Source: an uncultured Anaerolineales bacterium
GTDB lineage: Bacteria; Chloroflexota; Anaerolineae; Anaerolineales; UBA11858
DNA: 64,000 nt
Reading direction: 5' to 3'
NCBI GenBank assembly: GCA_964539105.1
Contig: CAZIFI010000007.1
Location: 2,883 to 66,882, forward strand
The translations under genes and the position numbers were made by a program. The notes beneath the pieces are model-generated. The model saw nothing but the letters and a program-made list of their open reading frames with translations, searched no databases and had not been told where the DNA came from. Below are positions 8,628 to 50,603 of the stretch, in pieces. Position 1 is the first letter of the stretch, and every line of letters starts with the position of its first letter.

Positions 8628-8652
8628 AGCAGGTTCCTTCCATCCAGATTAG

Positions 8653-9312: not shown

Positions 9313-9314
9313 GC

Positions 9315-9812
9315 TTAGCCTTCCAGGAGGTGAATGTATAATGTCTCGTCTTCAAGTTTGATGTCCAGTTCGTCCAGCGGGCGCGGTGGCGGGCCGTGGA
9401 TCACGTTTCCCTTGATGTCGAAGGAAGCGTCATGGCAGGGACAGATATAGGCATTTTCATCCTCTTTCCAGGATACGCGGCAGCTGAGGTGGGTGCAGAC
9501 GTTGGAGAAGACCCTGACGTCATCTTCCTCCTCCCGCAACACATAAACTCCGTGGCTGTGGCTAGTCCTTTCCCAGCCATTTACCTGGGTGCGTACGAAT
9601 GAAAACAAGGTCGGTTTTCCAACGGGGTACTTTTCTAAAGGACCCACAGGGACCCAATCCTCTTGTGTGGTTTTTTTCAAAGCAGGGGTAATGAAATAAT
9701 TAATGAAAGGTAGACCGAGAACGGCACCCATGATCGTTCCCAGGAAGGAAAGCACCACTTTGACGAAACTGCGGCGGTCTAACTTTGATGGATCTGATCC
9801 TGCGCTCATCAT
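9315..9812 (-). CDS. qcrA: Rieske [2Fe-2S] subunit with a twin-arginine signal
   Basis: CTHLSCRV and CPCHDASF cluster-binding boxes, and an N-terminal DRRSFVKVV Tat-like motif. The start was placed at MMSAG after GAGGAG; the track ORF extends to 9869. Confidence 0.9.
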   Translation of the reverse strand: MMSAGSDPSKLDRRSFVKVVLSFLGTIMGAVLGLPFINYFITPALKKTTQEDWVPVGPLEKYPVGKPTLFSFVRTQVNGWERTSHSHGVYVLREEEDDVRVFSNVCTHLSCRVSWKEDENAYICPCHDASFDIKGNVIHGPPPRPLDELDIKLEDETLYIHLLEG

Positions 9813-9919
9813 TATCTCCTCATCACCGGGAATAGACAACAGGCCGGTATTGTGTTTTGGTGAAATCATTATAGATGAGAATGAGGCGGGGAGTTGATGA
9901 TAACAAGAACTAACAAAGC

Positions 9920-9933
9920 GTGAACTTTGTCAC
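9920..9933. promoter_or_regulatory. GTGA-N6-TCAC palindrome in the divergent qcr/sdh control region
   Basis: GTGAACTTTGTCAC is read directly from the sequence. It has the same half-site architecture as CRP/FNR-family operators (TGTGA-N6-TCACA). Confidence 0.3.
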
Positions 9934-10054
9934 TTTTCTCTCCCAGATCGAGAGTGACATAATTGATACATGGGAATGATGGATAAATTCCCGGGTTTCC
10001 ATTATGATTAAAGACCAATAATCTGGATAAGTCCAAATCCAGGAGGAGGCGTCT

Positions 10055-10441
10055 ATGGCGCTCAATAAGGGTGTCGGGTTTTTCGAGGGGCTGCGGTATA
10101 AAGGTGCGGGTCCCATGCTGGCCTGGATTTTACACCGCATCTCCGGATTAGGGATGGTCGTTTTTGTGTCCTTGCATGTGTTGGCCTCCTTCATGACCCA
10201 GCAGATGGGCAGCGATTTGGGGATCACGATCAACATTATTTACGAATCGCTGTATTTCCAGCTCTTTATCTACTTCTGTGTTATCTTTCATGCTGTAAAT
10301 GGGCTGCGGATCGTGGTTCTGGATACTTGGCCCAAGTATATCCGCTATCAGCGGGAATCTACCTGGCTAGAATGGTTTATCATTCTGCCCATCTATGGGC
10401 TGACTGCGTTTATCATGATCCAACGAACGCTTGCGGGTTGA
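10055..10441 (+). CDS. sdhC: Succinate dehydrogenase cytochrome b subunit
   Basis: 128-aa protein with three TM helices and conserved His residues (ILHRISG, SLHVLAS). It lies immediately upstream of sdhD/A/B. Confidence 0.8.
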   Translation: MALNKGVGFFEGLRYKGAGPMLAWILHRISGLGMVVFVSLHVLASFMTQQMGSDLGITINIIYESLYFQLFIYFCVIFHAVNGLRIVVLDTWPKYIRYQRESTWLEWFIILPIYGLTAFIMIQRTLAG

Positions 10442-10458
10442 GGAGAGAGGAGGAATCT

Positions 10459-10881
10459 ATGCGGTCCAAAAAAGTAGTTAAACCTGGCTGGAATCTGGAA
10501 TATGTGATGTGGATCTTTACCCGCTTGTCTGGTGTTTCCATCGCGTTATTAGCAGCCATTGCCATGGCTGCTGCTTTGTTTATGGGCGCGCGCACACAGA
10601 TGGATCTGGAAGCATTAATGCGTTGGACGTTTTTCCCGAATGTAAACCATGTCATTAACACGGAAGTCCCCAATGTGACCGAGGTGTGGGCCAATGGATT
10701 CTGGCAAATCATGCAGATTCTGATCGTGTTTTTTGGTGTGACCCACGGGTTCAACGGATTGCGTGTTGTTATAGAAGATTACATCAAGCCCGGATTCTGG
10801 CATGTCGTGATCCGCTCTGTGATATTTCTGGCCTGGGTGTTTATGATGCTGGTCGCAGTGTATGTTGTCTTCAGCTCCTAA
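10459..10881 (+). CDS. sdhD: Succinate dehydrogenase hydrophobic membrane anchor subunit
   Basis: Polytopic small protein between sdhC and sdhA. The start was taken at ATG 10459, preceded by GGAGG. The track ORF (10327) overlaps sdhC. Confidence 0.75.
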   Translation: MRSKKVVKPGWNLEYVMWIFTRLSGVSIALLAAIAMAAALFMGARTQMDLEALMRWTFFPNVNHVINTEVPNVTEVWANGFWQIMQILIVFFGVTHGFNGLRVVIEDYIKPGFWHVVIRSVIFLAWVFMMLVAVYVVFSS

Positions 10882-10906
10882 TAATGTTTAAGGGAGGAGA
10901 GTGTTC

Positions 10907-12700
10907 ATGCATAACCATCAATATGAAGTTGTCGTTGTAGGAGCCGGGGGAGCAGGTCTGACAGCGGCCTTGTATGCATCAAAGTCCGCCAATACGGCAG
11001 TGATCAGTAAACTTTACCCCACCCGCTCTCACACTGGAACAGCCCAGGGTGGAATCGGGGCAGCTTTAGGTAACACCGAGGAAGACCATGCCGAGTGGCA
11101 TGCCTTTGATACTGTCAAAGGCAGTGACTACCTCGGTGATCAGGAAGCGATTGAATTTATGGCCTCAGAAGCCATCCAGGCTGTTTATGAGTTGGAACAT
11201 ATGGGTCTCCCGTTCAGCCGGAATGAGGATGGCACCATTGCCCAGCGTCGTTTTGGGGGTCATACGAACAATGAAACCGGAAAGCCGGTGCAGCGCGCCT
11301 GTTATGCCGCGGACCGTACGGGACATATGATCTTACAAACCCTCTACCAGCAAAGCATAAAAAACAACGTGAAATTTTTTGATGAGTTTCACGTTATTGA
11401 CCTTCTGGTGCAGGATGGGAAAGCTGTGGGCGTCGTTGCCCTGGAACTGGCTACTGGCGAATTACATATCTTTCATGCCAAATCTGTGATTTTCGCCACG
11501 GGTGGTCACGGACGGGTGTGGGAGATCACCTCCAACGCGTACTCTTACACGGGAGACGGAATTGCCATCACCCTGCGGCACGGTATTCCCGCAGAAGACA
11601 TGGAATTTTTCCAGTTTCATCCCACGGGGATCTACCGTATGGGCATACTGATTACGGAAGGGGTTCGGGGGGAAGGTGGGGTACTGTTGAACGATGAAGG
11701 GGAGCGTTTCATGGAACGCTACGCTCCCACTGTCAAAGACCTGGCATCGCGTGATGTGATCAGCCGCGCCATGTATTTAGAGATGAAGGAAGGCCGGGGG
11801 ATTGACGGCAAGCGCTACCTTAACCTGGATGTCAGGCCGGAAATTGTCAATAAATATGCTGAAGAGGACGGCCGCAAGGATATAGATGGAAACCCGTACC
11901 GCGTGACGGGAGAGGACATCCTGGAAAAACTGCCGGATATTATTGACTTCTGTGAGACGTATCTGGGGGTCAACCCGGTCACTGAGCCCATGCCGGTGCA
12001 GCCCACCGCCCATTACGCCATGGGCGGCATCCCCACCAACAAATTCGGCGAAGTTGTCATTGATGAAGAAAACACCGTCATGCCGGGGTTATATGCGGCA
12101 GGGGAGGTGGCTTGTGTCTCCGTTCACGGCGCAAACCGGCTGGGAACGAATGCGCTGTTGGATCTGGTTGTGTTTGGGAAATATTCCGGGATCAAAGCTG
12201 CAGAGTATGCCAATCAAGTCAGTTTTGAAACCCTGCCTGCCAACCCGGCGGAATTTACCCTGCAGCAGTTGAATGAGATCAAATCGGGTGGGGACGGCTC
12301 AGAGCGGATGTTCGACATCGCGAAAGAGATGAAAGAGGTCATGTTTGACCACGTGGGTGTTTTCCGGGTGGAAGAAGGCATGCAGCAGGCGGTGGAAAAA
12401 ATCCGGGAGCTGAAAGAACGTTTCAAAAACATTGACATCGATGACAAGAGTGATGCCTTCAACATGAATTTGTTGGAAGCCTGGGAGCTGTCTAACTTAT
12501 TGGATATGGCTGAAGTCACGGCGGTCTCAGCTCTGGAACGCAAGGAAAGCCGTGGGGCCCACTCCCGGGATGATTACAAAGAACGCGATGACGATCAGTG
12601 GTTGAAGCACACCCTGGCCTGGTTGGAACATGACGGCGTGAGGCTGGGTTACAAACCGGTTAATATTACGAATTATAAGCCGAAAGAGCGATCGTACTAG
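10907..12700 (+). CDS. sdhA: Succinate dehydrogenase / fumarate reductase flavoprotein subunit
   Basis: [17 protein letters not shown] fold, [10 protein letters not shown] (covalent-FAD His region), and HPTG...RGEGG and HYAMGG motifs. Confidence 0.95.
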
Positions 12701-12715
12701 CCAAGAGAGGGAATC

Positions 12716-13420
12716 ATGGAAATCACGTTAAAGATCTTTCGATATAACCCAGAGGACGACAAAAAAGGATATTTTGACACCTTTACCCTCGAGGCTGAAC
12801 CCACCGATCGCATACTGGACCTTTTAGAACGCATCAAGGGTACCATGGACGGCACTCTGGCATACCGCCGCTCTTGTGCTCACGGTGTGTGCGGCTCCGA
12901 TGCCATACGCATCAATGGCGTGAACCGGTTGGCATGCAAGGTGTTGGTGCAGGATCTGAAAAAGAAAAAGGTCACTATCGAACCTATCTTGGGTCTGGCC
13001 ATCGAAAAAGACCTCATCGTGGACATGGAACCGTTCTTTGATCACTACCGCAGCGTGCTTCCTTATTTTGTGAACGATGATCCTCCTCCCAGCAAGGAGC
13101 GTTTGCAAAGCCCTGAAGATCGGGCACGCTTTGATGACACCACAAAATGCATCCTGTGCGCGGCATGCACCACCTCCTGTCCTTCCTTCTGGGTCAATGA
13201 AGCGTATGTGGGACCGGCGGCCATCGTCACCGCTCATCGTTTTATTTATGACAGCCGGGACCAGGCCGCGGAAGAACGCCTGGAAATACTCAATGACCAG
13301 TTCGGTGTTTACCGCTGTCATACGATTTTCAACTGCACAGATGCCTGTCCGCGTGACATCGAAGTTACCCAGGCCATCGGGGAAGTTAAAAAATCAATCG
13401 CAACCGGAAAGGTTGAATAA
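12716..13420 (+). CDS. sdhB: Succinate dehydrogenase iron-sulfur subunit
   Basis: Cys clusters CAHGVCGSDA, CILCAACTTSCP and CHTIFNCTDACP for 2Fe-2S, 4Fe-4S and 3Fe-4S centres. Confidence 0.95.
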   Translation: MEITLKIFRYNPEDDKKGYFDTFTLEAEPTDRILDLLERIKGTMDGTLAYRRSCAHGVCGSDAIRINGVNRLACKVLVQDLKKKKVTIEPILGLAIEKDLIVDMEPFFDHYRSVLPYFVNDDPPPSKERLQSPEDRARFDDTTKCILCAACTTSCPSFWVNEAYVGPAAIVTAHRFIYDSRDQAAEERLEILNDQFGVYRCHTIFNCTDACPRDIEVTQAIGEVKKSIATGKVE

Positions 13421-14516: not shown

Positions 14517-15647
14517 TTAAAAAAGAGAAAACTGGTCTTGTAAAGCGAGTTTGAGATCCTTATAAACCATCGCTCCGGTATTTTTTAAAGATGCCACTTT
14601 TTGAGGATCGGTAGCGATTCCTACTGCGGTTATGTCTACCGGGATGGCGTTCTGCTCCAGCACTCGTCCGGCGGCAAACACGCTTTCAATACCGGCCGCG
14701 GTGTCTTCGTAGATATAGATCTCACTCCCTGTGAACGGATCCCACATGGCTTCCCCTTCTTTTTCGGAGGCCAGAGAAGCAGCTGCCTGCAGGGCCTTGA
14801 CGGTGGGCACACCCGCAGCGGCCAGCAGAGCTGAGAGGGCGTGAACAGGCCCCGGTTTCCGAAAGCGGTGTACCGGTTGGTCCCGTTGTGTGGCGATCCA
14901 TAACATCTCCCCGTATCCGATGAGGGGCAGTTCATGCAGACCAACCAGCTTGGCACCGATCTCAGCCTCGGGTGTCCCAAATAGATCCCCCGGAGGGATA
15001 GAAGGGCGGTTGGTGAGGATGCACCCGGCCCGGCCGCCGGATTTGAGCCAGGCCAGGCAGGCGGTTGTCTCTTCCCTGGTCAGATACGGTTGATCGAACT
15101 CAACCAGAAATCCGGGCAGGTCCATCTGGGGGGCATCAGGGTAAGTCTTGCGGTAGGTGTCACTGCCCAGTACCAGCTCCTGGAAGATACGGTAAGTGAT
15201 CGAAGCCGGATTGTGGGCTTTCTCCATGAGTTCCAGGATTTGTTTTTGATGTTGGCCGGCGAGTGCTTTTGTTAATATGTCTTTTGCAGCTTCCAGCGGG
15301 GACGCGGGAGTCGCAGGGTGGGATCGCAGCCTGTTGAGAAGTCCCACCCAATCAGGATCGGGGAGGGAGGGGTGGGTTCCCTCTTCGTTGTGAAGAGCTG
15401 TGGGCACGGGGTGATGGGGATCCATTTCCCAGCACAGCCTCATCATCCATGCCAGGCAAATGGCAGATGAGTCCCATTCGCTGGTGACACCGCACGCTTC
15501 TAAGGCGTATATATCCTCTTGGCTCAGGGCCGGATTTTCAAATCCCAAGTTTTTCCCCAGCAGTTCCACGGTCCTTTGCAGAGCCCGGTGATATCCGCGG
15601 GGCAGCAGCAGCACGCCGTCCATATCGAAAAGCAAAATGGTATCCAT
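14517..15647 (-). CDS. HAD-superfamily hydrolase with an unusually large cap insertion
   Basis: HAD motif I LLFDMDGVLL, motif II ILTNRPS, motif III RKPGP, motif IV YIYEDTAAGIES. Its ATG overlaps the hisE stop (TAATG). Confidence 0.8.
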   Translation of the reverse strand: MDTILLFDMDGVLLLPRGYHRALQRTVELLGKNLGFENPALSQEDIYALEACGVTSEWDSSAICLAWMMRLCWEMDPHHPVPTALHNEEGTHPSLPDPDWVGLLNRLRSHPATPASPLEAAKDILTKALAGQHQKQILELMEKAHNPASITYRIFQELVLGSDTYRKTYPDAPQMDLPGFLVEFDQPYLTREETTACLAWLKSGGRAGCILTNRPSIPPGDLFGTPEAEIGAKLVGLHELPLIGYGEMLWIATQRDQPVHRFRKPGPVHALSALLAAAGVPTVKALQAAASLASEKEGEAMWDPFTGSEIYIYEDTAAGIESVFAAGRVLEQNAIPVDITAVGIATDPQKVASLKNTGAMVYKDLKLALQDQFSLF

Positions 15648-15931
15648 TACGAACCCTGCTTGAGGTGGCGCTGCCGCAATTCTCTCTGCACCTCATCAAA
15701 GGAGATATCCTGGTAAGCCAGCAGCACCAGGGTGTGATACAGCAAGTCTGCCGTTTCTTCAATCACGCGTTGTTTTCCCTGTCCGGTGGCGGCCAGGATG
15801 ACCTCCATCGTCTCCTCGCCCACCTTTTTGAGGATGGAGTCCTGTCCTTCTTGCAATAGCTGTGCAGTATAGGAGCCCCGGGGTTGGTTTCGTTTTCTGT
15901 CCAGAATAATGTCGAATAATTCGTTGATCAT
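15647..15931 (-). CDS. hisE: Phosphoribosyl-ATP pyrophosphatase
   Basis: [13 protein letters not shown]...SYTAQLL..G...ILKKVGEE..E...A......[11 protein letters not shown] matches the HisE/MazG-like pattern. The ATG overlaps the hisI stop (ATGA). The track ORF extension to 16141 is out of context. Confidence 0.9.
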
Positions 15932-16284
15932 GAGGGGTGTCCTTCCTCTGTAGGTGGGATGGTTTCTTCCTTCAGCTGGCGGTAAAAACAAGAGGTGGCC
16001 CCGGTGTGGCAGGCAGGCCCGCTGGGTTTGACCTGCAGCAGCAAAGTATCCGCATCGCAATCCAACCGGATTTCCTGGACATGCATCACATTGCCCGAGG
16101 TGGCGCCCTTGTGCCACAGTTCCTGACGGCTCCGGCTCCAAAAATAAGCCTGGTTCGTTTCTTGTGTGTGCTGCAGGGCTTCCTCATTCATCCAGGCCAC
16201 CATTAAGACCTGCTTCGATTCAATATCCTGAACCACGGCCGGAATCAACCCTCGGTGATCATACTTCAACTGTAAATCTGTCAT
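15928..16284 (-). CDS. hisI: Phosphoribosyl-AMP cyclohydrolase
   Basis: [33 protein letters not shown] and DCDADTLL..V...GPACHTG motifs. Confidence 0.9.
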
Positions 16285-16294
16285 AACGAACTCC

Positions 16295-17812
16295 TTAGTG
16301 CCGAAAATGTCGGTTGCCGGTGAAGATCATCGCCATCCCTTGTTGATTGGCTTCTGCAATAACTTCTGTGTCGCGAATCGATCCGCCGGGCTGGATCACA
16401 GCGGTTACCCCTAATTCAGCAGCCAGGCGGATTCCGTCCGGAAAGGGAAAAAAGGCGTCACTTGCCAGGACGGATCCCTGGGCCCGATCCCCTGCGCGGT
16501 ACCCAGCCATGCGCACGCAATCCACCCGGTTGGGCTGTCCGCCGCTGATTCCCACCGTATATCGTTCCTGCCTATGGGCTTTTGCCAGCAAGACGGCATT
16601 GGACTTGACGTCCATCACCGCCTTCCAGGCAAATTGCAGAGCCGTTTTCTCCTGATCTGTGGGGTCCCGTTCTGAGACGATTTTCCAGCCAGAACTCACG
16701 CCCGGGTCCCCCCGATCAGGTGTCTGTTTCAAGAAGCCACCGGGGATGGAGCGGTATTCTGGGTCTGGAAAGGGTTGATCCTGCGAAGATTGAAGCAGGC
16801 GCAAACTCTCATTTTGGGACAGGCGCTGCAAAGCTTGCGGTGCAAAGTCCGGTGCCATGATACATTCCACGAACAGATCCCCTACCGCTTCCACAAAAGG
16901 TATGTGGATGGGGCGGTTGCTGGCGATCACGCTGCCAAAGGCTGAAGTAGGGTCGCTGGCCAGAGCCCGCGTGAACGCCTGGTGGACTTCCCGGGCCACC
17001 GCCACCCCGCACGGGCTGGTGTGTTTGATGATGGCGACAGCCGGCTGCTGGAAGCGATGTACGGTTCGCCAGGCGCCTTCCAGATCGAGCAGATTGTTGT
17101 AAGACAGCGGCTTACCGTGCAGGAGTGTGCTGTTGAAGGGGGCTCCTCCCGGTTTGCGGGCCAAAAAAGCTGCCTCCTGATGGGGGTTTTCCCCATAGCG
17201 CAGCGTCTGACCCGGATAAAGTGTGATGGCTGCAGCTTCTTGAACCTGGCTTAGGTCACGAAAGTATCTGGCAATGGCCTCATCGTAGGCTGTGGTGGTC
17301 ATGAAGGCTTTACGAGCCATCCTGAGGCGGAATTCTTCATTGTCCAGTACCTGCAGCGAGCGGGGATAGTCCTCTGGATCTGAAAGGACGGTAACGCGCC
17401 GGTAGTTCTTTGCAGCGGCCCGCAATAGTGCCACGCCCCCGATGTCGATGTGTTCCAGCACCTGCTCATGGCTGGCATCCTTTTTTTCAGCTGTTTCCTG
17501 GAAAGGGTACAGGTTGACCACAACCAGATCAATGTTCTTCCATCCCTGCTGTGCAAGCTTCTCCCGGGCGGATGCGGTATCCGGAGCGAGGATTCCGGCA
17601 TGGATGGCGGGGTGAAGGGTTTTTACCCGGCCTTCAAACAAAGGCGGCTGCCCGGTGAAATCTTGCACGGATTTGACGTTGATTCCAGCCTCTTCCAGGG
17701 CCCGGGCGGTCCCACCGCTGGCAATCAGCCCCCAGGCATCTTCCTGCAAAAGGCGGGCAAGCGAGATCAATCCCCGCTTATCCCATACCGACAACAAAGC
17801 GGTCTTCGTCAT
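16295..17812 (-). CDS. purH: Bifunctional AICAR transformylase / IMP cyclohydrolase
   Basis: N-terminal MGS-like ALLSVWDK.G...ASGGTA and KTLHP.IHAGIL, and C-terminal AICARFT motifs ([23 protein letters not shown]). Confidence 0.95.
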
Positions 17813-18609
17813 GCAATTTCCTCCCTGTTTTCGCGGGTGATATCGATCCCCACCGGCCGGATGGGGATGCCCTGTTCCATCAGGTGTCGTTTGACCTCAC
17901 CGATCGTCAGCACATCATCATGAAACAGGGAGGCAGCCAGGGCGGCATCTGCCCCTCCTGCAGTGACAGCCTGGGCAAAATGTTCTTTGGTTCCTGCCCC
18001 GCCGCTGGCGATCACCGGCACATCGACTACCCCGGTCACAGCGCGGATCAAATCCAGGTCGTACCCGTCCAGGGTTCCGTCACGGTCCATGCTGGTGAGG
18101 AGTATTTCACCTGCGCCTGCGTCCACGCCGCGCTGGGCCCAGTCCACGGCGTCCAGGCCTGTGGCCCGCCGTCCACCGTGGATGTAGACCTCCCAGGAGT
18201 GATCTTCACGCCGTTTGGCGTCAATGGCCAGCACCACACACTGGCTGCCAAATCGGCGGGCTCCTTCACTGAGAACATCCGGATTCTTGACGGCTGCGGA
18301 ATTGATGCTGATCTTATCCGCGCCGGCCCGCAGGATGGCTCGCATGTCCCCGGCGCTGCGGATCCCGCCGCCCACTGTAAGGGGCAAAAAAACCTGGTCT
18401 GCCACCTGGCGCACGATCCCGGCCACAGTATCCCGTTTTTCATGGCTGGCGGTGATATCCAGAAACACAAGTTCATCCGCGCCCATCCGGTCGTAAATCC
18501 GGGCTTGTTCGACCGGGTCGCCGGCATCACGGATGTTTACGAAATTGACGCCTTTCACCACCCGTCCCCGGTCTACATCTAAACAGGGGATGATGCGTTT
18601 GGCCAGCAT
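17809..18609 (-). CDS. hisF: Imidazole glycerol phosphate synthase, cyclase subunit
   Basis: [38 protein letters not shown] and SGGAG motifs. Confidence 0.95.
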
Positions 18610-19359
18610 TTATTGTCCTCCTTGAAATCGTTCCAGGGCCTGGGTCAGGTCGATGTGGCCTTCATACAGGGCCCGCCCGATGATCACGCCCTGCAGCCCG
18701 GCTTCCCGGGCGGATTGAATATCTTCCAGATTAGAAACGCCGCCTGCAGCGATGACATCCAGCCCGGTGTTTTTCTGAAAAATGAGGGCAGCACTGACAT
18801 TTAATCCGCGGTTCATGCCATCCCGGGTGATGTCAGTGTAAACAGCTCTTATCAAGCCCTTTTTGCGCAGCTGTTTCCCGAAGGCAATGGGAAGTAATGC
18901 TGTGCCTTCCGTCCAGCCCCGGACCTGAACGACGCCGTCCCGGGCGTCGATGCCGGCCACTATGTGTTTTTCCCCGAAGGATTGAACAGCCTTCTGAACG
19001 ATATCTGGGTTCCGGACTGCAGCTGTGCCCAGGATGGTCCGGCTGACGCCCAGAGACAGCAAGTGTTGAATGTCATCCAGGCTCCGGATTCCGCCTCCGA
19101 ACTGAACCCGGGCATCAGCGGAACGCGCTGCATCCAGGATTTCCTCCAGCGCCTGTTGATTGGGAGTGTCCTGTTCTTCAAATGCTCCGTCCAGGTTGAC
19201 AACATGCAGCCAGTGGGCCCCTTCTTCCAGCCAGCGGCGGGCGACCTTTCCGGGTTGGCGGTCATACATGGTTTCCCGGTCCGGGTCTCCCTGCTTTAAT
19301 CGCACAACCTGGCCGCGGCGGAGGTCGATTGCTGGATATATTGTGAACTCAGTCATCAT
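18610..19359 (-). CDS. hisA: ProFAR isomerase (1-(5-phosphoribosyl)-5-[(5-phosphoribosylamino)methylideneamino]imidazole-4-carboxamide isomerase)
   Basis: IYPAIDLRRGQVVRL.QGD, LHVVNLDGA, QFGGGIRS and AAGGVS motifs. Confidence 0.95.
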   Translation of the reverse strand: MMTEFTIYPAIDLRRGQVVRLKQGDPDRETMYDRQPGKVARRWLEEGAHWLHVVNLDGAFEEQDTPNQQALEEILDAARSADARVQFGGGIRSLDDIQHLLSLGVSRTILGTAAVRNPDIVQKAVQSFGEKHIVAGIDARDGVVQVRGWTEGTALLPIAFGKQLRKKGLIRAVYTDITRDGMNRGLNVSAALIFQKNTGLDVIAAGGVSNLEDIQSAREAGLQGVIIGRALYEGHIDLTQALERFQGGQ

Positions 19360-19383
19360 ATGAACTACCTCAATTTTCTATAT

Positions 19384-19989
19384 TTACAGTCGGACAAAAT
19401 TACTTAGCAGTTGCAGGCCGATGTGCTGGCTCTTTTCGGGATGAAATTGCACTCCGTAAATCTGCCCGCGCTGAACGATGGAGGCGTAGGGGTCACCATA
19501 TGTTGTGGTTGCCAGCACAATGTCTTCCTGTTCAGCGGCACAGTAATAGGTGTGGTTGAAATAGGCATAACTTTCCGGAGGAATATCTGTCAATAAGTCG
19601 TCTTTACGTGTGGCGTGAATCTGGTTCCACCCTGTATGGGGCACCGTCAAACCATGTTCGGGAAAGCGGACCACCCGCCCCGGAAGCAATCCTAACCCGG
19701 GATGCTCACCATGTTCCTCGCTGACCTCGAACAGCATTTGCATCCCGACACATATTCCCAGCAGTGGTACATCATTCTGCACGGCCTCGAGAAGGGGGGT
19801 TTTCAGGTCCCGGGCTTTCAGACCCTGCATGGCATCCGCGAACGCGCCCACGCCGGGCAGGACCAGCTTTTCTACCTTTTGGATGTGAGCCGGATCGTCC
19901 GTGAGTACAACATCCGCTCCGACGGTGGTGAGGGCTTTTTGTACGGAACGGAGATTGCCAACCCCGTGATCAATAAGAGCCATTCTCAT
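19384..19989 (-). CDS. hisH: Imidazole glycerol phosphate synthase, glutamine amidotransferase subunit
   Basis: Class I GATase motifs LPGVGAF, GICVGMQ (catalytic Cys) and FHPEKS. Confidence 0.95.
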   Translation of the reverse strand: MRMALIDHGVGNLRSVQKALTTVGADVVLTDDPAHIQKVEKLVLPGVGAFADAMQGLKARDLKTPLLEAVQNDVPLLGICVGMQMLFEVSEEHGEHPGLGLLPGRVVRFPEHGLTVPHTGWNQIHATRKDDLLTDIPPESYAYFNHTYYCAAEQEDIVLATTTYGDPYASIVQRGQIYGVQFHPEKSQHIGLQLLSNFVRL

Positions 19990-19998
19990 CCTGTCCTC

Positions 19999-20586
19999 CT
20001 ACAATGAGCCTTTTGTGCTGGGCACCGTGCCGCCGCGCCGTTTGTCGATCCGGCAGGCTTCATCCAGAGCCCGCCCCAGCGCTTTAAACAAGGCTTCCGC
20101 TTTGTGATGGTCATCCCTGCCGTACAACACCCGGGCGTGCAGGTTGCAGCGCGCGGTTACGGCGAAGGATTCCAGGACATGGGGGAAGAGGGTGGTGGCA
20201 ATACCGCCCACGCGGGGAGACTGCCATTCCACCTGGATGACACTGTACGGTCGGCCGGAAAAATCCAGGGCGATATGAGCCAGGGTTTCGTCCATGGGGA
20301 CAAAGCTGTCACCCATGCGGGTGATGCCTTTTCGATCTCCAAGGGCCTGGTCAAAGGCCTGACCCAGCGCCAGGGCACAGTCCTCGACAGTGTGATGTTC
20401 ATCAACCTCCAGATCCCCCCGGGCAGTGAGCTGCAGGTCAAACAGGCCGTGCAGGGCGACGTGGGACAGCATGTGATCGAAAAAACCCAGCCCGGTATCA
20501 ATCTGGGCCTTCCCGGAGCCATCCAGGTTGAGATGGAGATCAATTTCAGTTTCCTGTGTTGTGCGTTTGATGTTTGCTTTTCGCAT
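19999..20586 (-). CDS. hisB: Imidazoleglycerol-phosphate dehydratase (monofunctional, no phosphatase domain)
   Basis: RTTQETEI...[18 protein letters not shown] and G.D.HH..EA.FKA motifs. At 195 aa it is too short to include an N-terminal HAD domain. Confidence 0.95.
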
Positions 20587-20612: not shown

Positions 20613-21710
20613 TTACAGGTCGTTCAGGGCCCGGAGTAAAGCAGCGGTGTCTGACGGGGTGCCGACGCTGATCCGGATGTGGTCATCCAGGGCCGGTTTA
20701 TCAAAATAGCGGATTAAGATTCCCTGCTGTGCCAGTCGTTCTTTGACCTGGCCTGCGTCTTTGTTGTCCACGCGGCACAGGACAAAATTGGCCTGGGATG
20801 GATAAGGCTCCAGCCAGCTGATTCCGGAAAGCTCTTCGTATAGCCTTTTGCGCTCGTCACGGATGGCCCGGGTTTGGGCCTCCAGCTCAGAGTGGTGAGC
20901 CAGCGTGGCGCGGGCTGCTGCCGCTCCAGCGGCGTTGACATTATAGGGCTGTTTGATCTTCCAGATGGCGGGTGTGATCCACCCGGGAAACACGCCATAT
21001 CCCACGCGCAGGCCGGCTAATCCACCCCACTTGCTGAAGGTGCGCAGCACAATCAGGTTATCATGCTGCCTGGTGTAGTCCATCAGGCTGGATCCGCGGG
21101 GGGCAAAATCAATATAGGCCTCATCGACCACCAGGAGCAGTGGGAGATCAAGCAGGCGCTCCAGCGAGGAGGGGGGGAGGACACCGCCATCGGGATTATT
21201 GGGGGATGCCACAAAGAGTACTTTGGGTGAATATTCACGGACGGCCTTTTCTACTTCTGGCATGTCGAAAGAAAAATCATCCTGGCGCGGGACAGACAGG
21301 ACCCGGCCGGCGTTGACATCCGTGTCAAAGGCATACATACTGAAAGTAGGAGGACAATTCAAGATCAGGTCCCCGGGGTTGAGGATGACGCGTAAGATGA
21401 GATCGATGAGCTCATCCGCCCCGGCTCCGGCCAGAATGCGATCCACGGGCAGATCATGGACTTCAGCGATGTCACGCCGCAAATAGCGTGCTTCAGGATC
21501 GGGATAGATGTGAATGTTTTCCAGATCCTTCAACGTCTCTTTGACTGCTGGCAGAGGTCCGTAGGGGTTTTCATTGGCATCTAACTTGATGAGGTCCTCT
21601 TCCGGAATCCCGAGCTGTTCCGAGAGCACATCGAAAGGATGGATGGGTTGATAAGGGGGCATGTCCTGGATGTGGCCCCGCAGCAGGGTATGAGGCTGAA
21701 AAGAAGTCAT
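20613..21710 (-). CDS. hisC: Histidinol-phosphate aminotransferase
   Basis: [16 protein letters not shown]-like [15 protein letters not shown] and [16 protein letters not shown] (PLP Lys). Confidence 0.95.
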
Positions 21711-23020
21711 GAGTCACTCCGGAAATCAGCGCTGGCCGCGTGAGCTGTAAGGGATTCTACCCGGGCAATTTGAGAAGCCAGCGGGCTCAGTTGGCGGGCG
21801 GTGTCTTGATCGAGGCCGATCAGGCTGCTTATTTTCACAAAATCCATCACGTTCAAAGGAGAAGCAAAGCGGGCGGTTCCCCCCGTAGGCATGATGTGGC
21901 TGGGACCTGCGACATAGTCTCCCAGGACTTCGAAAGAGTGGTCACCCAGGAAAAATCCGCCAGCGTTGTTGATCTTATCCGCCAGTGCAGCAGGGTCTTT
22001 GACAGCCAGGCACAGGTGCTCCGCGGCGTACTCATCCGCCAATTCAGCAGCGGTGTCCAGATCGGGAGTGATGACCGCACCCCCCTTATCTTCCAGCGAC
22101 TGGTTGATGATGTCTGCTCTGGTGAGGGTTTCCAGCTGGTGAGCCACCGCGCGCTGCACGGCTTGTGCCAGGTCCCGGGATGGGGTGAGGAGGATGGCGC
22201 TGGCCAGAACATCATGCTCGGCCTGGGCCAACAGGTCGCTGGCGACCCACTCAGGGTCCGCGCTCTCGTCAGCAATGACCATGGTCTCCGTGGGGCCGGC
22301 CAATCCGTCTAACCCCACAATGCCGTACACCTGCTGTTTGGCGATGGTCACGAACAGGTTTCCAGCGCCTACTATTTTATCCACCCGGGGGACGCTTTCC
22401 GTGCCAAACGCCATAGCGGCAATGGCTTGCGCTCCTCCGATTTGATAGACTTCGTCAATATCGCACAGGAAAGCGGAAGCCAGAATGCTGGGGTCAGGAT
22501 CCGGGGGGGTGGTGACAATAATCCGCTCCACCCCTGCTGCCTGGGCCGGGATGACGGACATCAGCAGAGAAGAGGGTAGGGGGGCGGTCCCACCCGGTAC
22601 ATAGACGCCCGCCCGCTCTACCGCGGTCACCCGCTGGCCGAGGATGCCGCCCATGTCGGAGGTGGTCCAGTCCGGCAGCGGCTGACGGCGGTGAAAATCG
22701 CGGATGCGGTCCGCGGCTGTCTCCAGGGCATCTTTTAATTCTGGTGATAAATCCTGATAGGCTTTCTGCAGTTCCTCCGCCGGGGTGAGGAAGGTCTCCA
22801 TGTCGGTGTTATCCAGGGTGAGGGACCACTTACGGAGCGCTTTGTCTCCCTCCTCGCGCACTGAGTTCATAATTTGGGTCACGGCTTGATAGGGGGTTAC
22901 GCCCGGACCGAAAATTTCCTCTACCCCCAGCCTGACCATTTCCGGCACTTCCTGGGTGTTAAGGGGTTGGCGGCGAAGGATCGACTTTTGTGCTTTTTCA
23001 ATGTCATATATCTTGAACAT
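21707..23020 (-). CDS. hisD: Histidinol dehydrogenase
   Basis: GVYVPGG.AP.PSS, IGGAQAIAA, QAEHD and GD...GP.H..PT motifs. The start was placed at MFKIYD (ATG at 23020 after AGGAG). The track extension to 23068 overlaps hisG. Confidence 0.93.
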   Translation of the reverse strand: MFKIYDIEKAQKSILRRQPLNTQEVPEMVRLGVEEIFGPGVTPYQAVTQIMNSVREEGDKALRKWSLTLDNTDMETFLTPAEELQKAYQDLSPELKDALETAADRIRDFHRRQPLPDWTTSDMGGILGQRVTAVERAGVYVPGGTAPLPSSLLMSVIPAQAAGVERIIVTTPPDPDPSILASAFLCDIDEVYQIGGAQAIAAMAFGTESVPRVDKIVGAGNLFVTIAKQQVYGIVGLDGLAGPTETMVIADESADPEWVASDLLAQAEHDVLASAILLTPSRDLAQAVQRAVAHQLETLTRADIINQSLEDKGGAVITPDLDTAAELADEYAAEHLCLAVKDPAALADKINNAGGFFLGDHSFEVLGDYVAGPSHIMPTGGTARFASPLNVMDFVKISSLIGLDQDTARQLSPLASQIARVESLTAHAASADFRSDS

Positions 23021-23039
23021 GGAACGACTCCTGAAAAGG

Positions 23040-24050
23040 TTATTGGTGAGCGCTGTCGAGGGCGTCAAGCATGGCTTTATAGGCGTCAGGTTCCTCTTCG
23101 AAGATATATTTCACCGAGGTCACCACCACGCCGCTTCCGCCGATTTCTCGCAATTCACTGATGGCCTGAGCGAGTTGGTCCTTACGGACCACGATATGGG
23201 CCGCAAACCAGTCTCCATCTTTGTCTGTCATCACGGGGGATATCGTCGGCCCCTGCAGCCCGCCGATCACTTTCTGGGTCTTCATTTTATCAGCGATGGC
23301 CCGGGGAGATTCCCCGCGCATGTTGGCAAACACGGCAACGTTGTTTTTGGCCCGCAGATGGGCGACGATGAACTCCAGTAGCTGCCGGGCGACATCCAGG
23401 GCCTCCGGTCTGTTTTGCAGTGAGGGCCGGTGGGCTACCAGACAGGCTTGGGAGGAGAGGATTTCACCATCCTGCAGGGCTTTGAGATGATTGGCGCGCA
23501 TGGTGGTACCCGTGGAGACCAGGTCCACAATCAGATCGGTATGGCCGATGACGGGAGCAATTTCCAGCGTGCCTTCTGCCGAGATGTAATCCACGCCTTC
23601 CAGGCCGAACTCCTGGAAAAAAGACTCCGTCAGGCGGGGGAATTTTGTGGCTACTCTGAGATTTTCTTCTTCCCGCTCCTGAAGGATTTCCAGGTCATCC
23701 ATGTGGTTGATATCCGTCCAGGCTTCAGGGACGATCACGTTCAGCGTGCACTGCCCGTAGCCCAGTTCCCGGTGCAAAGGAAGAATGTTTTTACCTACGC
23801 CGCCCTGCTCGCATACCATATCCCACCCGGTGATGCCAAAATCAACCGTGCCGTCATGCACGCTGACGGCGATATCACCTGCCCGCTGAAAAAGGACGGT
23901 CACACGCGGCAGGCTGGGAATGGATGCCTGAAATTGGCGGGGATTGGGTTTATAGACCCGGAGACCGGCTTTGGCCAGTAAATCAAGGGTATCATCCGCC
24001 AGCCGCCCCTTGCTGGGCAAGGCCAGCCGGATGTCATTACGATTGCTCAT
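23040..24050 (-). CDS. hisG: ATP phosphoribosyltransferase, long form with C-terminal regulatory domain
   Basis: LALPSKGRL, D.GITG.D, LV.TG.TM..N.L and the C-terminal ACT-like HisG_C region. AGGAGGAAG lies upstream of the ATG. Confidence 0.93.
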   Translation of the reverse strand: MSNRNDIRLALPSKGRLADDTLDLLAKAGLRVYKPNPRQFQASIPSLPRVTVLFQRAGDIAVSVHDGTVDFGITGWDMVCEQGGVGKNILPLHRELGYGQCTLNVIVPEAWTDINHMDDLEILQEREEENLRVATKFPRLTESFFQEFGLEGVDYISAEGTLEIAPVIGHTDLIVDLVSTGTTMRANHLKALQDGEILSSQACLVAHRPSLQNRPEALDVARQLLEFIVAHLRAKNNVAVFANMRGESPRAIADKMKTQKVIGGLQGPTISPVMTDKDGDWFAAHIVVRKDQLAQAISELREIGGSGVVVTSVKYIFEEEPDAYKAMLDALDSAHQ

Positions 24051-24076: not shown

Positions 24077-24110
24077 AAAAACAAAAAAGCGCCCTCCTCG
24101 CGGAGGACGC
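24077..24110 (-). terminator. Attenuator terminator immediately upstream of hisG
   Basis: Minus strand: GCGTCCTCC-GCGA-GGAGGGCGC (9-bp stem with one G-U pair, tetraloop) followed by TTTTTTGTTTTT. It lies 26 nt before the hisG ATG and 30 nt after the stop of the His-rich mini-ORF. Confidence 0.8.
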
Positions 24111-24140
24111 TGTGGATAATCTCGTTTGGTTGCAAGTACC

Positions 24141-24221
24141 CTACTTAAGCACGTCCTGACCGGTCGGAGCCGCCGGCAAAGTGTGATGATGGTGATGGTG
24201 TAAGGACGTGTAGCTGTTCAT
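24141..24221 (-). CDS. His-operon leader peptide (hisL-like), 26 codons with six consecutive His codons
   Basis: Minus strand, base by base: ATG AAC AGC TAC ACG TCC TTA CAC CAT CAC CAT CAT CAC ACT TTG CCG GCG GCT CCG ACC GGT CAG GAC GTG CTT AAG TAG = MNSYTSLHHHHHHTLPAAPTGQDVLK*. It is too short for the ORF track. Confidence 0.75.
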   Translation of the reverse strand: MNSYTSLHHHHHHTLPAAPTGQDVLK

Positions 24222-24231
24222 ATCTGCGGCG

Positions 24232-24260
24232 ATTGTAGCATGGCCTCCCGTGGCTGTAAA
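24232..24260 (-). promoter_or_regulatory. Near-consensus sigma-70 promoter of the his operon
   Basis: Minus strand: TTTACA (24260-24255), 17-nt spacer, TGC-TACAAT (extended -10, 24240-24232). Only 10 nt separate the -10 from the leader ATG. Confidence 0.65.
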
Positions 24261-34193: not shown

Positions 34194-34982
34194 GTGAGGT
34201 TCTTTCATCTGTCTGATTTGCACATCGGACAATCGAAAAACGATCAAAAGGTGGGGGTGATCACGCGCTGGATCATTGATCATGCCTCGCAGCATCAAGC
34301 CCGTCTGGTTTTGATCACCGGTGACGTGGTGGATTCCGGGTTCAAATGGCAGTATCAAAAAGCCCAGCAGCATGTGGAGCGTCTGCGTCAGGCTGGGTTC
34401 CGGGTGCTTGTCGTCCCTGGAAATCATGATTATGGACCGCTGGGGATTGCCGAAAGCCGAAGAAGCGCGCAGCATTTCAAACGCTACCTGACCGGGGGGC
34501 GGGAGTTTCCCTCGCTGGAGGTGGTTGATCGACAGGTCTTCATTTTGCTCGATTCCATGCAGCAAGAATTGGAAGATGTAGAAATATGGGGCGCGGAAGG
34601 TGAGCTGGGAGACAGTCAGTTACAAGAAGTAAAATTGATGCTTGATGATCTGGAGGGAGATCCCGCGGTGGACCATGTCATCGTCGCTCTCCATCATCAT
34701 CCCTTTGAATATAAAAACTTTCATGAACTGCGTGATGCAGAAAAGCTAATGGAGGTGGTCGCCAATCCAGGTGTATCCTCAATCCGGGTTCAGTGCTTAT
34801 TATTCGGCCATAAACATGTGGCGATGCGCTTTGATCATCCTCCTCTGGATATGGAAACCAGGTACGGTTTGGGTTTGATCTTCGCTGCGGGTTCTACCGT
34901 GGAACGGGACCGGTCTGGCCGGATGACGCTGCCCGTGATTGATTTAAAGCAGATGGGCATTAAACGCTGGAAAATACAGTAA
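34194..34982 (+). CDS. Calcineurin-like metallophosphoesterase
   Basis: HLSDLHIG, ITGDVVD, VPGNHD, ALHHHP and GHKH motifs. GTG start. Confidence 0.85.
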   Translation: MRFFHLSDLHIGQSKNDQKVGVITRWIIDHASQHQARLVLITGDVVDSGFKWQYQKAQQHVERLRQAGFRVLVVPGNHDYGPLGIAESRRSAQHFKRYLTGGREFPSLEVVDRQVFILLDSMQQELEDVEIWGAEGELGDSQLQEVKLMLDDLEGDPAVDHVIVALHHHPFEYKNFHELRDAEKLMEVVANPGVSSIRVQCLLFGHKHVAMRFDHPPLDMETRYGLGLIFAAGSTVERDRSGRMTLPVIDLKQMGIKRWKIQ

Positions 34983-49772: not shown

Positions 49773-50603
49773 TCAGGTCAAGAACAGGTCTTCGCCTGCG
49801 CCTTGAATGGCAATAATCGTGATGTTGTCGTGACCTCCTCGCTGATTAGCAAGATCCACAAGCTTGTGGAGAGCCTGGTCCTTATCGGGCGTCTTTTCCA
49901 TCACTGCCCGTATTTCCTGGTCTAGGACGAGTGAAGTCAACCCATCACTGCACAGCAGAATCAAGTCTCCCGGAATGAGCGGCAACCCCTGGTTGGCTTC
50001 AGCCTGTTCAGGGGATTCGGAATCTGTGAGGAACATGCGCAAATCGGGTTGAATGGGATCCGAAGAGCCCAGATAACTCCGGATCAGATTTCGACGGGGA
50101 TGCTTTTGGGCTTCCTGCTGGCTGATGACACCGTTCTCGATCGCTTCCTGGACCCAGGTGTGATCGACAGTCAACTGCCGGATGCGTCCATCCCGGATGA
50201 GATAAATCCTGGAATCTCCCATGGATGCGATATACAGGTGGCCGTCAATCACCAGGGCGCAGGCGATGGTAGACCCCATTCCTTTCTTTGTTTCATCGTA
50301 TTCGGCTACGGAGGTTATGGCATGGTTGGCTTCCAACATGGCGCTTTTCAGGGTCCAAAGGGGTTGTGTCAGGTCTCCTTCTTGGATGACTGACAGGATG
50401 GCTTTTACGGCCATGTCCGAGGCAATCTCGCCAGCCTTTTGTCCTCCCACACCATCTGCGACGATCGCAACCAGGACCTGGGAATCTGTATCCTCAGAAT
50501 CAAAGGAGGATATTTCATAGCGGTCTTCGTTGATCTTACCGCTCTGTCCTGGATCTGTGATCCCGTAGACGTCGAGATAATCTTCTCGTGAATTCAAATT
50601 CAA
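49773..50603 (-). CDS. PP2C-family Ser/Thr protein phosphatase
   Basis: TDPGQSGKINEDRY, VADGVGG, MGSTI, GDSRIYL, LCSDGL and GGHDNIT motifs. TTG start overlapping the upstream stop (TTGA). A second TTG two codons downstream is equally possible. Confidence 0.9.
   Translation of the reverse strand: MNLNSREDYLDVYGITDPGQSGKINEDRYEISSFDSEDTDSQVLVAIVADGVGGQKAGEIASDMAVKAILSVIQEGDLTQPLWTLKSAMLEANHAITSVAEYDETKKGMGSTIACALVIDGHLYIASMGDSRIYLIRDGRIRQLTVDHTWVQEAIENGVISQQEAQKHPRRNLIRSYLGSSDPIQPDLRMFLTDSESPEQAEANQGLPLIPGDLILLCSDGLTSLVLDQEIRAVMEKTPDKDQALHKLVDLANQRGGHDNITIIAIQGAGEDLFLT

Follow-up and report, generated by a model that had tools for sequence, protein, structure and literature searches.

To our knowledge, histidinol-phosphate phosphatase (HolPase) catalyses the one non-conserved step of histidine biosynthesis, which is also the gap that automated pathway reconstruction most often still leaves open. 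GapMind 2026 lists the step as missing from 20% of prototrophic genomes (10.1101/2024.10.14.618325), and the enzyme is unknown in ~32% of histidine-producing organisms in a KEGG survey (PMC10804674). HAD enzymes serve as HolPase in three lineages, namely HisB-N, the related archaeal proteins toHisN and nmHisN, and PA0335 (PMC10804674). HisB-N is the GmhB-related 'DDDD' HAD phosphatase of the gammaproteobacterial bifunctional HisB. The archaeal enzymes, toHisN (TON_0887) from Thermococcus onnurineus and nmHisN (Nmar_1556) from Nitrosopumilus maritimus, are monofunctional HAD HolPases, and nmHisN was found as an uncharacterised HAD gene within a his cluster and then confirmed in vitro (PMC10804674); its kcat/KM for histidinol phosphate is about 1.1e4 M-1 s-1. 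Chloroflexi do not figure among the groups from which their family was described, namely Thaumarchaeota, Bathyarchaeota, Euryarchaeota, Thermococcales and a few delta-proteobacteria (PMC10804674). The third enzyme, paHisN (PA0335, Pseudomonas aeruginosa), is phosphoserine-phosphatase-like and was recruited to the HolPase step, its specificity being set by the acidic and aromatic residues D16, D18 and Y47 (PMC10804674). PHP-type HolPases (HisJ/HisK) adopt a (beta/alpha)7 barrel. The IMPase-type HisN has been reported in Chloroflexi for the class Chloroflexia, with no mention of Anaerolineae (PMC5516325).

Here we analysed the window, a stretch of 64,000 nucleotides from an uncultured Anaerolineales bacterium, which contains a his operon in the order hisG-D-C-B-H-A-F-purH-hisI-hisE-HAD on the minus strand, with intergenic gaps of -29 to +26 nt. 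A first-pass annotation had claimed that this operon encodes every step of the histidine pathway except histidinol-phosphate phosphatase, and NCBIfam searches bear this out. The genes hisC, hisD and hisG occupy 20613..24050 (TIGR01141, TIGR00069, and TIGR00070 plus TIGR03455), with hisG in its long form carrying a C-terminal regulatory domain. They are followed by hisF, hisA, hisH and hisB (17809..20586; NCBIfam equivalogs), hisI (phosphoribosyl-AMP cyclohydrolase; 15928..16284; NF000768, E 1e-49) and hisE (phosphoribosyl-ATP diphosphatase, 94 aa; 15647..15931; TIGR03188, E 2e-31). As had been proposed, the 195-aa HisB is a dehydratase only, its alignment to the bifunctional HisB model being confined to the dehydratase half (positions 167-355), and profile searches found neither a PHP-type nor an IMPase-type gene in the operon; a Pfam search of 20 further ORFs of the window also returned neither. 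A calcineurin-like phosphoesterase (34194..34982) and a PP2C phosphatase (49773..50603) elsewhere in the window were considered as the missing enzyme and rejected, as neither represents a known HolPase class or is linked to his genes. The operon also has an embedded purH (AICAR formyltransferase/IMP cyclohydrolase; 16295..17812; NF002049, E 4e-182), which is absent from the first-pass annotation.

The gene that follows hisE, at 14517..15647, is an ORF of 376 aa with an ATG start and a TAA stop; the earlier annotation had given the ORF correctly without stating that it lies on the minus strand. On the evidence of the ORF, its homologues and an AF2 model it encodes a HAD-fold protein, a candidate histidinol-phosphate phosphatase. 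A pseudogene or chance ORF is ruled out by its conservation and by the confident AF2 model, and its composition (GC 0.56, GC3 0.61) resembles that of the rest of the operon. The reported overlap of its ATG with the hisE stop codon was confirmed as TAATG at 15645..15649 (minus strand). No GGAGG-like Shine-Dalgarno sequence was found in the 20 nt upstream of its start, unlike for most other genes of the operon. Judged from this overlap and the lack of a Shine-Dalgarno sequence of its own, the HAD gene is predicted to be translationally coupled to hisE. Its description as the last gene of the operon is probable only: a YccF-family gene lies 102 nt downstream on the same strand, and the scan showed no terminator-like site in this gap. 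The three sequencing runs listed as containing the locus are microbial-mat metagenomes, probably of DNA, with no RNA run among them.

All four HAD motifs that had been read from the sequence are present, and their positions on the minus strand were checked. Motif I, DMDGV (residues 8-12; 15612..15626), contains the putative nucleophile D8 and general acid/base D10; motif II, ILTNRPS (residues 210-216; 15000..15020), contains T212; motif III, RKPGP (residues 263-267; 14847..14861), contains K264; and motif IV, YEDTAAG (residues 313-319; 14691..14711), contains E314 and D315. The protein has the features that define the HAD superfamily, namely a DxD in motif I, a Thr/Ser in motif II, a Lys/Arg in motif III and an acidic motif IV. 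In an alignment of 32 homologues, seven residues do not vary (D8, D10, T212, R214, P215, K264 and P265), and E314/D315 are kept in at least 90% of the sequences. D8, D10, K264 and P265 are also invariant in 29 locus-derived sequences, where the sole exception to the acidic pair of motif IV is a D-D in L023. Since the catalytic residues are invariant or near-invariant across the 32 homologues, these motifs represent a conserved active site and no chance match, and the protein is predicted to be a DxD-type HAD enzyme with its catalytic residues intact.

When the HAD protein was compared with Pfam and NCBIfam, no curated model reached its cut-off, and the protein therefore has no name to inherit; PF00702 gave an E of 0.075, under the Pfam cut-off. 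The family to which it belongs comprises 792 clusters at 50% identity, is unannotated and comes from Anaerolineae/Chloroflexota assemblies. Among the 170 matches listed, all homologues are ~377 aa long. Named members carry 'hypothetical' or generic HAD labels, and JGI names some homologues phosphoglycolate phosphatase-like or beta-phosphoglucomutase-like. Of the curated models, TIGR01548 scored best; this NCBIfam 'hypothetical equivalog' (HAD-SF-IA-hyp1) belongs to HAD subfamily IA and has no function assigned. It matched 24 of the 32 members (best E 3.8e-7) over motif I, the cap and motif II, and it scored 18.8 bits (E 9e-4) with the window protein, against a cut-off of 140.2. This model is 197 positions long, and its cap must therefore be much smaller than that of the window protein. 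TIGR02009 (beta-phosphoglucomutase-type) was matched by 15 of the 32 members, and the core of the protein resembles this group.

These weak matches, along with others to TIGR01990, could indicate that the HAD protein is a beta-phosphoglucomutase-like phosphomutase or another HAD-type transferase and no simple phosphatase. Its signatures in motifs I and IV (DxDGV...YH, EDxxxG), which we take to resemble those of beta-phosphoglucomutase, would fit the same explanation. We nevertheless consider a mutase highly improbable: the matches to this group fall far under the cut-offs (best E 0.005), neither histidine biosynthesis nor its surroundings include a mutase step, and the cap exceeds that of beta-phosphoglucomutase more than twofold in size and has another set of conserved residues.

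An insert of about 190 aa between motifs I and II had been noted in the first-pass annotation, and in the AF2 model (mean pLDDT 93.5) it forms about ten helices. This insert (residues 14-205; 15033..15608, minus strand), defined from AF2 secondary structure and conservation, is modelled as the all-helical C1 cap that characterises HAD subfamily I, and the alternating strand-helix elements of the model form a Rossmannoid core. The cap is about twice the size usual for HAD subfamily IA, and its conserved residues are Y19, E50, G53, E57, W58, Q156, E157, G161, Y169 and D185. The top Foldseek matches of the model were 1QYI and 2PKE, both of HAD fold. The only significant one (E 5e-11; TM-score 0.70 in both directions; RMSD 5 Å) was 1QYI, an orphan structure of the S. 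aureus hypothetical protein Q8NW41 (NESG target ZR25), with 380 residues against the 376 of the HAD protein. As this match is full-length, the large cap is shared along with the core, and the cap motifs SxWD (GitSEWD / GLNSNWD) and QExxLGS are common to 1QYI and the window family. At the sequence level, 1QYI and the HAD protein are 17% identical, with a marginal profile E of 0.054. A 137-aa fragment of the 1QYI cap matched no Pfam family and gave an hhalign probability of 4%, which leaves structure as the basis of the link to 1QYI. To judge from the model, the giant C1 cap would be of a kind otherwise recorded only in this orphan protein. A sequence search of PDB chains with the single HAD protein returned only matches to a His-tag/thrombin-site linker (LVPRGSH against LLPRGYH), which were discarded as spurious. 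A literature search on Anaerolineae/Chloroflexi HolPase, TIGR01548 and 1QYI/ZR25 found nothing on the HAD family of the window.

We then compared the HAD protein with the described HolPases. The suggestion that it could be a new HAD lineage apart from HisB-N stands as far as HisB-N is concerned, but several other HAD-type HolPases are already known (PMC10804674). The window protein and HisB-N both belong to the HAD superfamily and are encoded in his operons, and the same DxD chemistry and reaction are proposed for the two. However, HisB-N is capless, with a Zn-binding CxH/CxC loop and a fusion to the dehydratase (PMC9798254), whereas the window protein stands alone and has a 190-aa helical cap. 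The HisB-N model TIGR01656 gave no match to the window protein at E < 1 and was matched by only 2 of the 32 family members, at E 0.02 or weaker.

Like the window protein, nmHisN and toHisN are stand-alone HAD proteins encoded in his clusters, and the same gene-context logic led to them. They also share a single large all-helical C1 insert, with nine predicted helices in nmHisN and seven in toHisN (PMC10804674) compared with about ten in the window protein, a likeness that concerns architecture only. For the archaeal enzymes, the imidazole is proposed to be bound by acidic residues of the cap and a Tyr in its first helix (PMC10804674); in the window protein, the invariant Y19 is on the first cap helix and E50 and E57 follow ~31-38 residues later. 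The archaeal fingerprint Y24-D25-K/R56-D/E64, compared from its published description, is not obvious in the window protein, and the residue after Y19 is H, R or N in the locus sequences, not D (Y19-H20 in the window). A Y19-H20-like pair is also found in beta-phosphoglucomutase-type HAD-IA enzymes.

The candidate resembles paHisN in being a monofunctional HAD protein; paHisN has two small inserts (PMC10804674), in contrast to the one large insert of the window protein, and phosphoserine-phosphatase (SerB)-type models did not match the window family. Neither Pfam nor NCBIfam yielded a PHP match at E < 1 or an IMPase-family match, and the Rossmannoid fold predicted for the window protein differs from the PHP barrel and from the IMPase fold. 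We could identify no set of residues in the HAD family of the window that marks specificity for histidinol phosphate. Specificity is hard to predict from sequence among HAD enzymes, for which a 65% mis-annotation rate has been cited (PMC10804674).

The first-pass annotation had made its proposal depend on whether the HAD gene is linked to hisE in relatives. Among 33 informative loci drawn from genome and metagenome collections, the HAD gene lies directly after hisE in 25, and tblastn matches to hisE and HAD in the relatives checked are mostly within ~30 nt of each other. Within the window's clade the informative members are his-linked without exception, and the linkage extends to members of only 29-31% identity (e.g. 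L014, L015, L029 and L031). In the complete operons (L002, L004, L014, L015, L019, L027, L029 and L035) the HAD gene is the sole phosphatase-like gene, the only other extra genes being purH and a glyoxalase-fold ORF. The operon gaps of L003, L004, L008 and L031 contain no convincing ORF for a second phosphatase; the hisH-hisF gap of L026 and L032 was dismissed as a site for one, as it contains a glyoxalase-fold ORF. The HAD gene is outside any his cluster in the other 8 informative loci (L013 and L037 being partial matches), where its neighbours, read by eye, are varied and include a DegV-like gene, an aminotransferase, CorA and a P-type ATPase. The association of the HAD gene with his genes is thus strong, but not universal.

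Since operon 3' ends are common insertion points, and some family members sit elsewhere in the genome, the HAD gene could be a passenger that entered the operon at its 3' end in some ancestor and has since been kept by inertia. This explanation deserves very little weight, as the adjacency to hisE holds across deep divergence and across the differing operon orders hisB-H-A-F and hisB-A-H-F, the catalytic and cap residues are strictly conserved, and the gene has an operon-like composition and a start codon that would depend on translation of hisE.

The eight loci without his linkage would also fit a HAD phosphatase that acts on another substrate, with histidinol phosphate hydrolysed by an unlinked enzyme. 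Such a phosphatase could be ancillary, clearing a toxic or dead-end phosphorylated by-product, e.g. AICAR/ZMP or a sugar phosphate, or it could be a general housekeeping HAD-IA enzyme of the phosphoglycolate or sugar-phosphate type. The AICAR-handling purH shares an operon with the HAD gene both in the window and in its closest relatives, and stands at the same operon position in L001, L019 and L035, while the weak matches to generic HAD-IA and beta-phosphoglucomutase-type models and the JGI names of some homologues would suit a housekeeping role. However, in operons without purH (L002, L004, L014, L015, L027 and L029) the HAD gene still stands behind hisE, so that its presence does not depend on purH; retention of the coupling to hisE across lineages of ~30% identity would be surprising for a housekeeping phosphatase; and the operons examined offer no other candidate for the missing step. 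We regard a different substrate as unlikely, though deserving of consideration.

Because the HAD gene directly follows hisE in most related Anaerolineae genomes, it is the best candidate for the apparently missing pathway enzyme, and because HAD enzymes already serve this step in three other lineages, a further HAD-type HolPase is the best explanation of the data. We conclude that the product of the HAD gene is most likely the enzyme that serves this Anaerolineae bacterium as histidinol-phosphate phosphatase (EC 3.1.3.15).

Upstream of hisG, a promoter/terminator scan and reading by eye delineated an operon leader at 24078..24260 (minus strand). It comprises a promoter-like site (24260..24232), an ORF for a leader peptide (24221..24141) that reads MNSYTSLHHHHHHTLPAAPTGQDVLK up to its stop codon, and a terminator hairpin (24111..24088) followed by a T tract, all on the minus strand. 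The leader ORF contains six consecutive His codons (HHHHHH) ahead of the terminator, the arrangement of a His-leader-peptide attenuator; such histidine-specific control of the operon would favour a HolPase role for the HAD gene. His-rich leader ORFs, with 4 His codons in a row, also precede hisG in L002, L004, L019 and L035, in which a G+C hairpin and T tract were read by eye from the sequences. An Rfam scan of the window returned no His_leader and no T-box, only two tRNAs, and we found no description of a His-leader-peptide attenuator in Chloroflexota in the literature searched.

By analogy with DxD-type HAD phosphatases, D8 of the candidate HolPase would attack the phosphate of L-histidinol phosphate to form an aspartyl-phosphate intermediate, and D10 would act as the general acid/base. 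T212 and K264 would hold the phosphoryl group, and Mg2+ would be bound by E314 and D315 together with D8. The large helical cap would close over the active site, where the invariant aromatic and acidic residues Y19, E50, E57, W58, Q156/E157, Y169, D185 and possibly E227/E229 may provide the binding site for the substrate's imidazole ring and protonated amine. The HAD gene would be translated through its coupling to hisE, and it probably shares the transcript of the entire operon, controlled by the His-leader-peptide attenuator; we propose that the HAD protein is therefore made only when histidine is scarce. It is plausible on balance, though we hold this broader reading with less assurance than the enzymatic assignment itself, that the family represents an independently recruited HAD HolPase lineage of the class Anaerolineae, with a giant, ~ten-helix, 1QYI-like C1 cap, coupling to hisE and control by His attenuation.

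Anaerolineae occur in abundance in sediments, microbial mats, wastewater sludge and digesters; for the most part they are represented by metagenome assemblies alone. A HolPase step that is missing from such assemblies carries the risk of a wrong call of histidine auxotrophy, and a verified family-specific marker would correct these predictions. If verified, the candidate would extend the record of HAD enzymes being recruited time and again to this one reaction. If our assignment is true, it would provide the first functional lead for the 1QYI-type large-cap HAD fold and would close the last gap in the histidine pathway for a whole bacterial class.

Upstream of the HAD gene, and likewise on the minus strand, NCBIfam models identified hisG (long form), hisD, hisC, hisB, hisH, hisA, hisF, purH, hisI and hisE, separated by gaps of -29 to +26 nt. 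HisB, 195 aa long, aligned with the bifunctional HisB model over the dehydratase half only. As HisB is a dehydratase only and the remaining genes account for other steps, the operon encodes every step of the histidine pathway except the histidinol-phosphate phosphatase (HolPase), the gap that the first-pass annotation had proposed the HAD gene to fill. The longest hisD ORF (21707–23068, minus strand) has a TTG start and overlaps hisG by 29 nt; its extra ~16–60 N-terminal residues fall outside hisD models and relatives, with matches beginning at residue 17 by tblastn versus residue 63 with NCBIfam, and the gene probably starts instead at the ATG of codon 17 (MFKIYDIEK...). The purH gene (AICAR formyltransferase/IMP cyclohydrolase; 16295–17812, minus strand) lies between hisF and hisI and overlaps hisF by 4 nt, a placement consistent with reuse of the AICAR that HisHF releases. 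Among related loci from genome and metagenome collections, purH was found in the his operons of the closer relatives only (L001, L019 and L035, and at a different position in L036); those of L002, L004, L014, L015, L027 and L029 are without it.

The HAD gene (14517–15647, minus strand) is an ORF of 376 aa in which we located all four catalytic motifs that had been claimed for it: DMDGV (residues 8–12), ILTNRPS (210–216), RKPGP (263–267) and YEDTAAG (313–319). The reported overlap of its start with the hisE stop, TAATG, is also present in the sequence, so that the first-pass description of the gene held in respect of its ORF, motifs, overlap and operon gap. A GGAGG-type ribosome-binding site precedes most other genes of the operon, and none was found in the 20 nt before the HAD gene ATG. 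Given this and the TAATG overlap, it is reasonable to infer that the HAD gene is initiated by coupling to hisE translation. Its GC and GC3 resemble those of the neighbouring genes. A YccF-family inner-membrane protein (PF03733; 13494–14414, minus strand) is encoded 102 nt 3' of the HAD gene, followed by a CBS-pair protein gene, and in L019 the HAD gene is likewise followed by YccF (11240–11614; 80% identity). Since no terminator-like site was found between the HAD gene and yccF, the operon transcript may extend past the HAD gene.

Two respiratory gene clusters adjoin the his region (7419–13420): one encoding Rieske, cytochrome b and a cytochrome b(C-terminal)-cytochrome c fusion (7419–9869, minus strand), and one encoding the flavoprotein and Fe-S subunits of succinate dehydrogenase/fumarate reductase (10901–13420, plus strand), preceded by two small ORFs that look like putative membrane subunits (10055–10881). 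From these clusters, this member of the Anaerolineae, which comes from a microbial-mat metagenome, appears to respire and not to live strictly by fermentation.

At the other end of the operon, putative leader elements occupy 24078–24260 (minus strand) upstream of the hisG ATG at 24050. A promoter-like site (24260–24232; TTTACA-17-TACAAT, second hexamer preceded by TG) is followed by a 26-codon leader ORF (24221–24141; MNSYTSLHHHHHHTLPAAPTGQDVLK) with six consecutive His codons, and by a G+C-rich hairpin of 10 bp with a T tract (24111–24088) ~40 nt before hisG. The minimum-free-energy fold pairs the segment immediately 5' of the His codons with the end segment of the leader ORF. By eye, that end segment could pair instead with the terminator's 5' arm; the predicted arrangement is the classical 1:2/2:3/3:4 attenuator layout. 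With such a His-codon leader and layout, the operon would be expected to respond to histidyl-tRNA supply, as presumably would its last gene. Because the leader ATG lies ~10 nt past the -10 box, translation of the leader ORF may take place on an mRNA that is leaderless or almost so. Upstream of hisG in L002, L004, L019 and L035, a script detected leader ORFs in which four or more His codons occur in a row, each followed by a G+C-rich hairpin and T tract recognised by eye, and H-x-H-type leaders were seen by eye upstream of hisG in L014 and L015. The Rfam His_leader model did not detect the window's leader, and the literature found places such attenuators in Proteobacteria and a small number of Firmicutes, not in Chloroflexi (PMC9413887).

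The main evidence on the role of the HAD gene is its genomic context in relatives. One scan of species-representative genomes and one of metagenome contigs yielded 38 loci, on which the window's His proteins were placed by tblastn; 33 were informative, extending far enough upstream to be assessed. The HAD gene is immediately preceded by hisE, on the same strand, in 25 of the 33, and in the his-linked loci the gap between the hisE and HAD tblastn matches is mostly <30 nt. The linkage is kept whether the gene order is hisB-H-A-F or hisB-A-H-F, and with or without purH. As it persists in relatives, the absence of the HAD gene from their his operons, named at first pass as grounds for rejecting the proposal, is clearly not what we found, and we consider it highly improbable that the gene is a passenger. 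In the complete operons recovered no gene but this one is phosphatase-like, and the other insertions found were limited to purH and, between hisH and hisF, a ~150-aa glyoxalase/VOC-fold protein (PF00903, E 1e-8; L026 279–737, L032 1274–1753).

In a neighbour-joining tree of 28 near-full-length locus sequences and the window protein, the latter fell within a clade with an FDMDGV signature (~377 aa), every informative member of which is his-linked. A more divergent FDLDGVLI group (~394 aa) is mixed: it holds linked members (L008, L010, L014, L015, L029 and L031) together with two sub-clades (L009/L030/L012 and L011/L016/L017) that account for six of the eight unlinked loci. L013 and L037, the remaining two, match only in part and were left out of the tree. 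Because catalytic and cap residues are essentially alike in linked and unlinked members, the unlinked genes appear to be copies that have moved elsewhere and not to encode another enzyme. L016 (7847–12123) and L017 (6659–12500) share a neighbourhood in which, by eye, aminotransferase/KBL-like and DegV-like genes precede the family member and a CorA-like gene comes after it; the gene that follows in L009 and L012 is P-type-ATPase-like. The his-linked homologue of L014 (~8671–9846) is interrupted in frame by a stop at codon 14 (MNLWLFDLDGVLI*PAGY), a position occupied by His in its closest relatives, L015 and L029; a sequencing error is the probable explanation, a recent pseudogene a possible one.

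The HAD protein is unrecognised by curated libraries: its sole Pfam match was PF00702 (E 0.075), and its NCBIfam match to TIGR01548 scored 18.8 bits, where the cut-off is 140.2. When 5.8 billion proteins were searched, 170 homologues were returned; among the matches listed, these are ~370–440 aa long, bear 'hypothetical' or generic HAD labels and, where organisms are named, come from Anaerolineales or Chloroflexi. With a profile, 792 clusters were matched among 1.84 billion cluster representatives at an E-value of 1e-3 or better, and 465 when the limit was set at 1e-30. Aligning 32 diverse members showed no variation at the catalytic residues D8, D10, T212 and K264 and almost none at E314/D315; also invariant are Y19, E50, G53, E57, W58, T151, Q156, E157, G161, Y169 and D185 in the cap, the insert between motifs I and II, and P226, E227 and E229 in the loop between motifs II and III. 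That the HAD protein is a mutase seems to us very doubtful.

AlphaFold2 gave a confident model (pLDDT 93.5, pTM 0.90) with a Rossmannoid core and roughly ten helices in residues ~14–205, of which ~80–125 have the lowest conservation and model confidence. The cap thus modelled appears to combine a normal subfamily-IA helical bundle with an extra helical sub-domain. Foldseek found one significant match in the PDB, 1QYI (E 5e-11, TM-score 0.70), a similarly long S. aureus protein from structural genomics whose function is unknown; by sequence its similarity to the HAD family is marginal (E 0.054), with cap motifs SxWD and QExxLGS in common.

Known HolPases span three superfamilies: HAD (HisB-N, the related archaeal toHisN/nmHisN, and the PA0335 type), PHP (HisJ/HisK) and IMPase (HisN) (PMC5516325; PMC9798254; PMC10804674). 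Since the relevant models were unmatched and the architecture differs, the HAD protein is distinct from HisB-N, as first suggested, and the PHP, IMPase and PA0335 types were likewise excluded. Like the HAD protein, nmHisN/toHisN have a single large helical cap and are encoded inside a his cluster; however, their Y-D-K/R-D/E fingerprint, compared by published description, is not evident in the HAD protein, and Chloroflexi are not among the phyla named in the published survey (PMC10804674). IMPase-type HisN is reported as general for the class Chloroflexia, not Anaerolineae (PMC5516325), and our searches found no literature link between Anaerolineae and a HolPase. The main rival explanation, that the HAD protein is a phosphatase acting on another, ancillary substrate, we regard as unlikely. 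The HolPase reading is well supported by conserved context and is the best available explanation; we therefore predict that the HAD protein is probably the organism's HolPase. If confirmed, it would represent another HAD recruitment to this step, not a new category, and its moderate interest would lie in filling a known gap in annotation across an entire bacterial class that is mostly uncultured.
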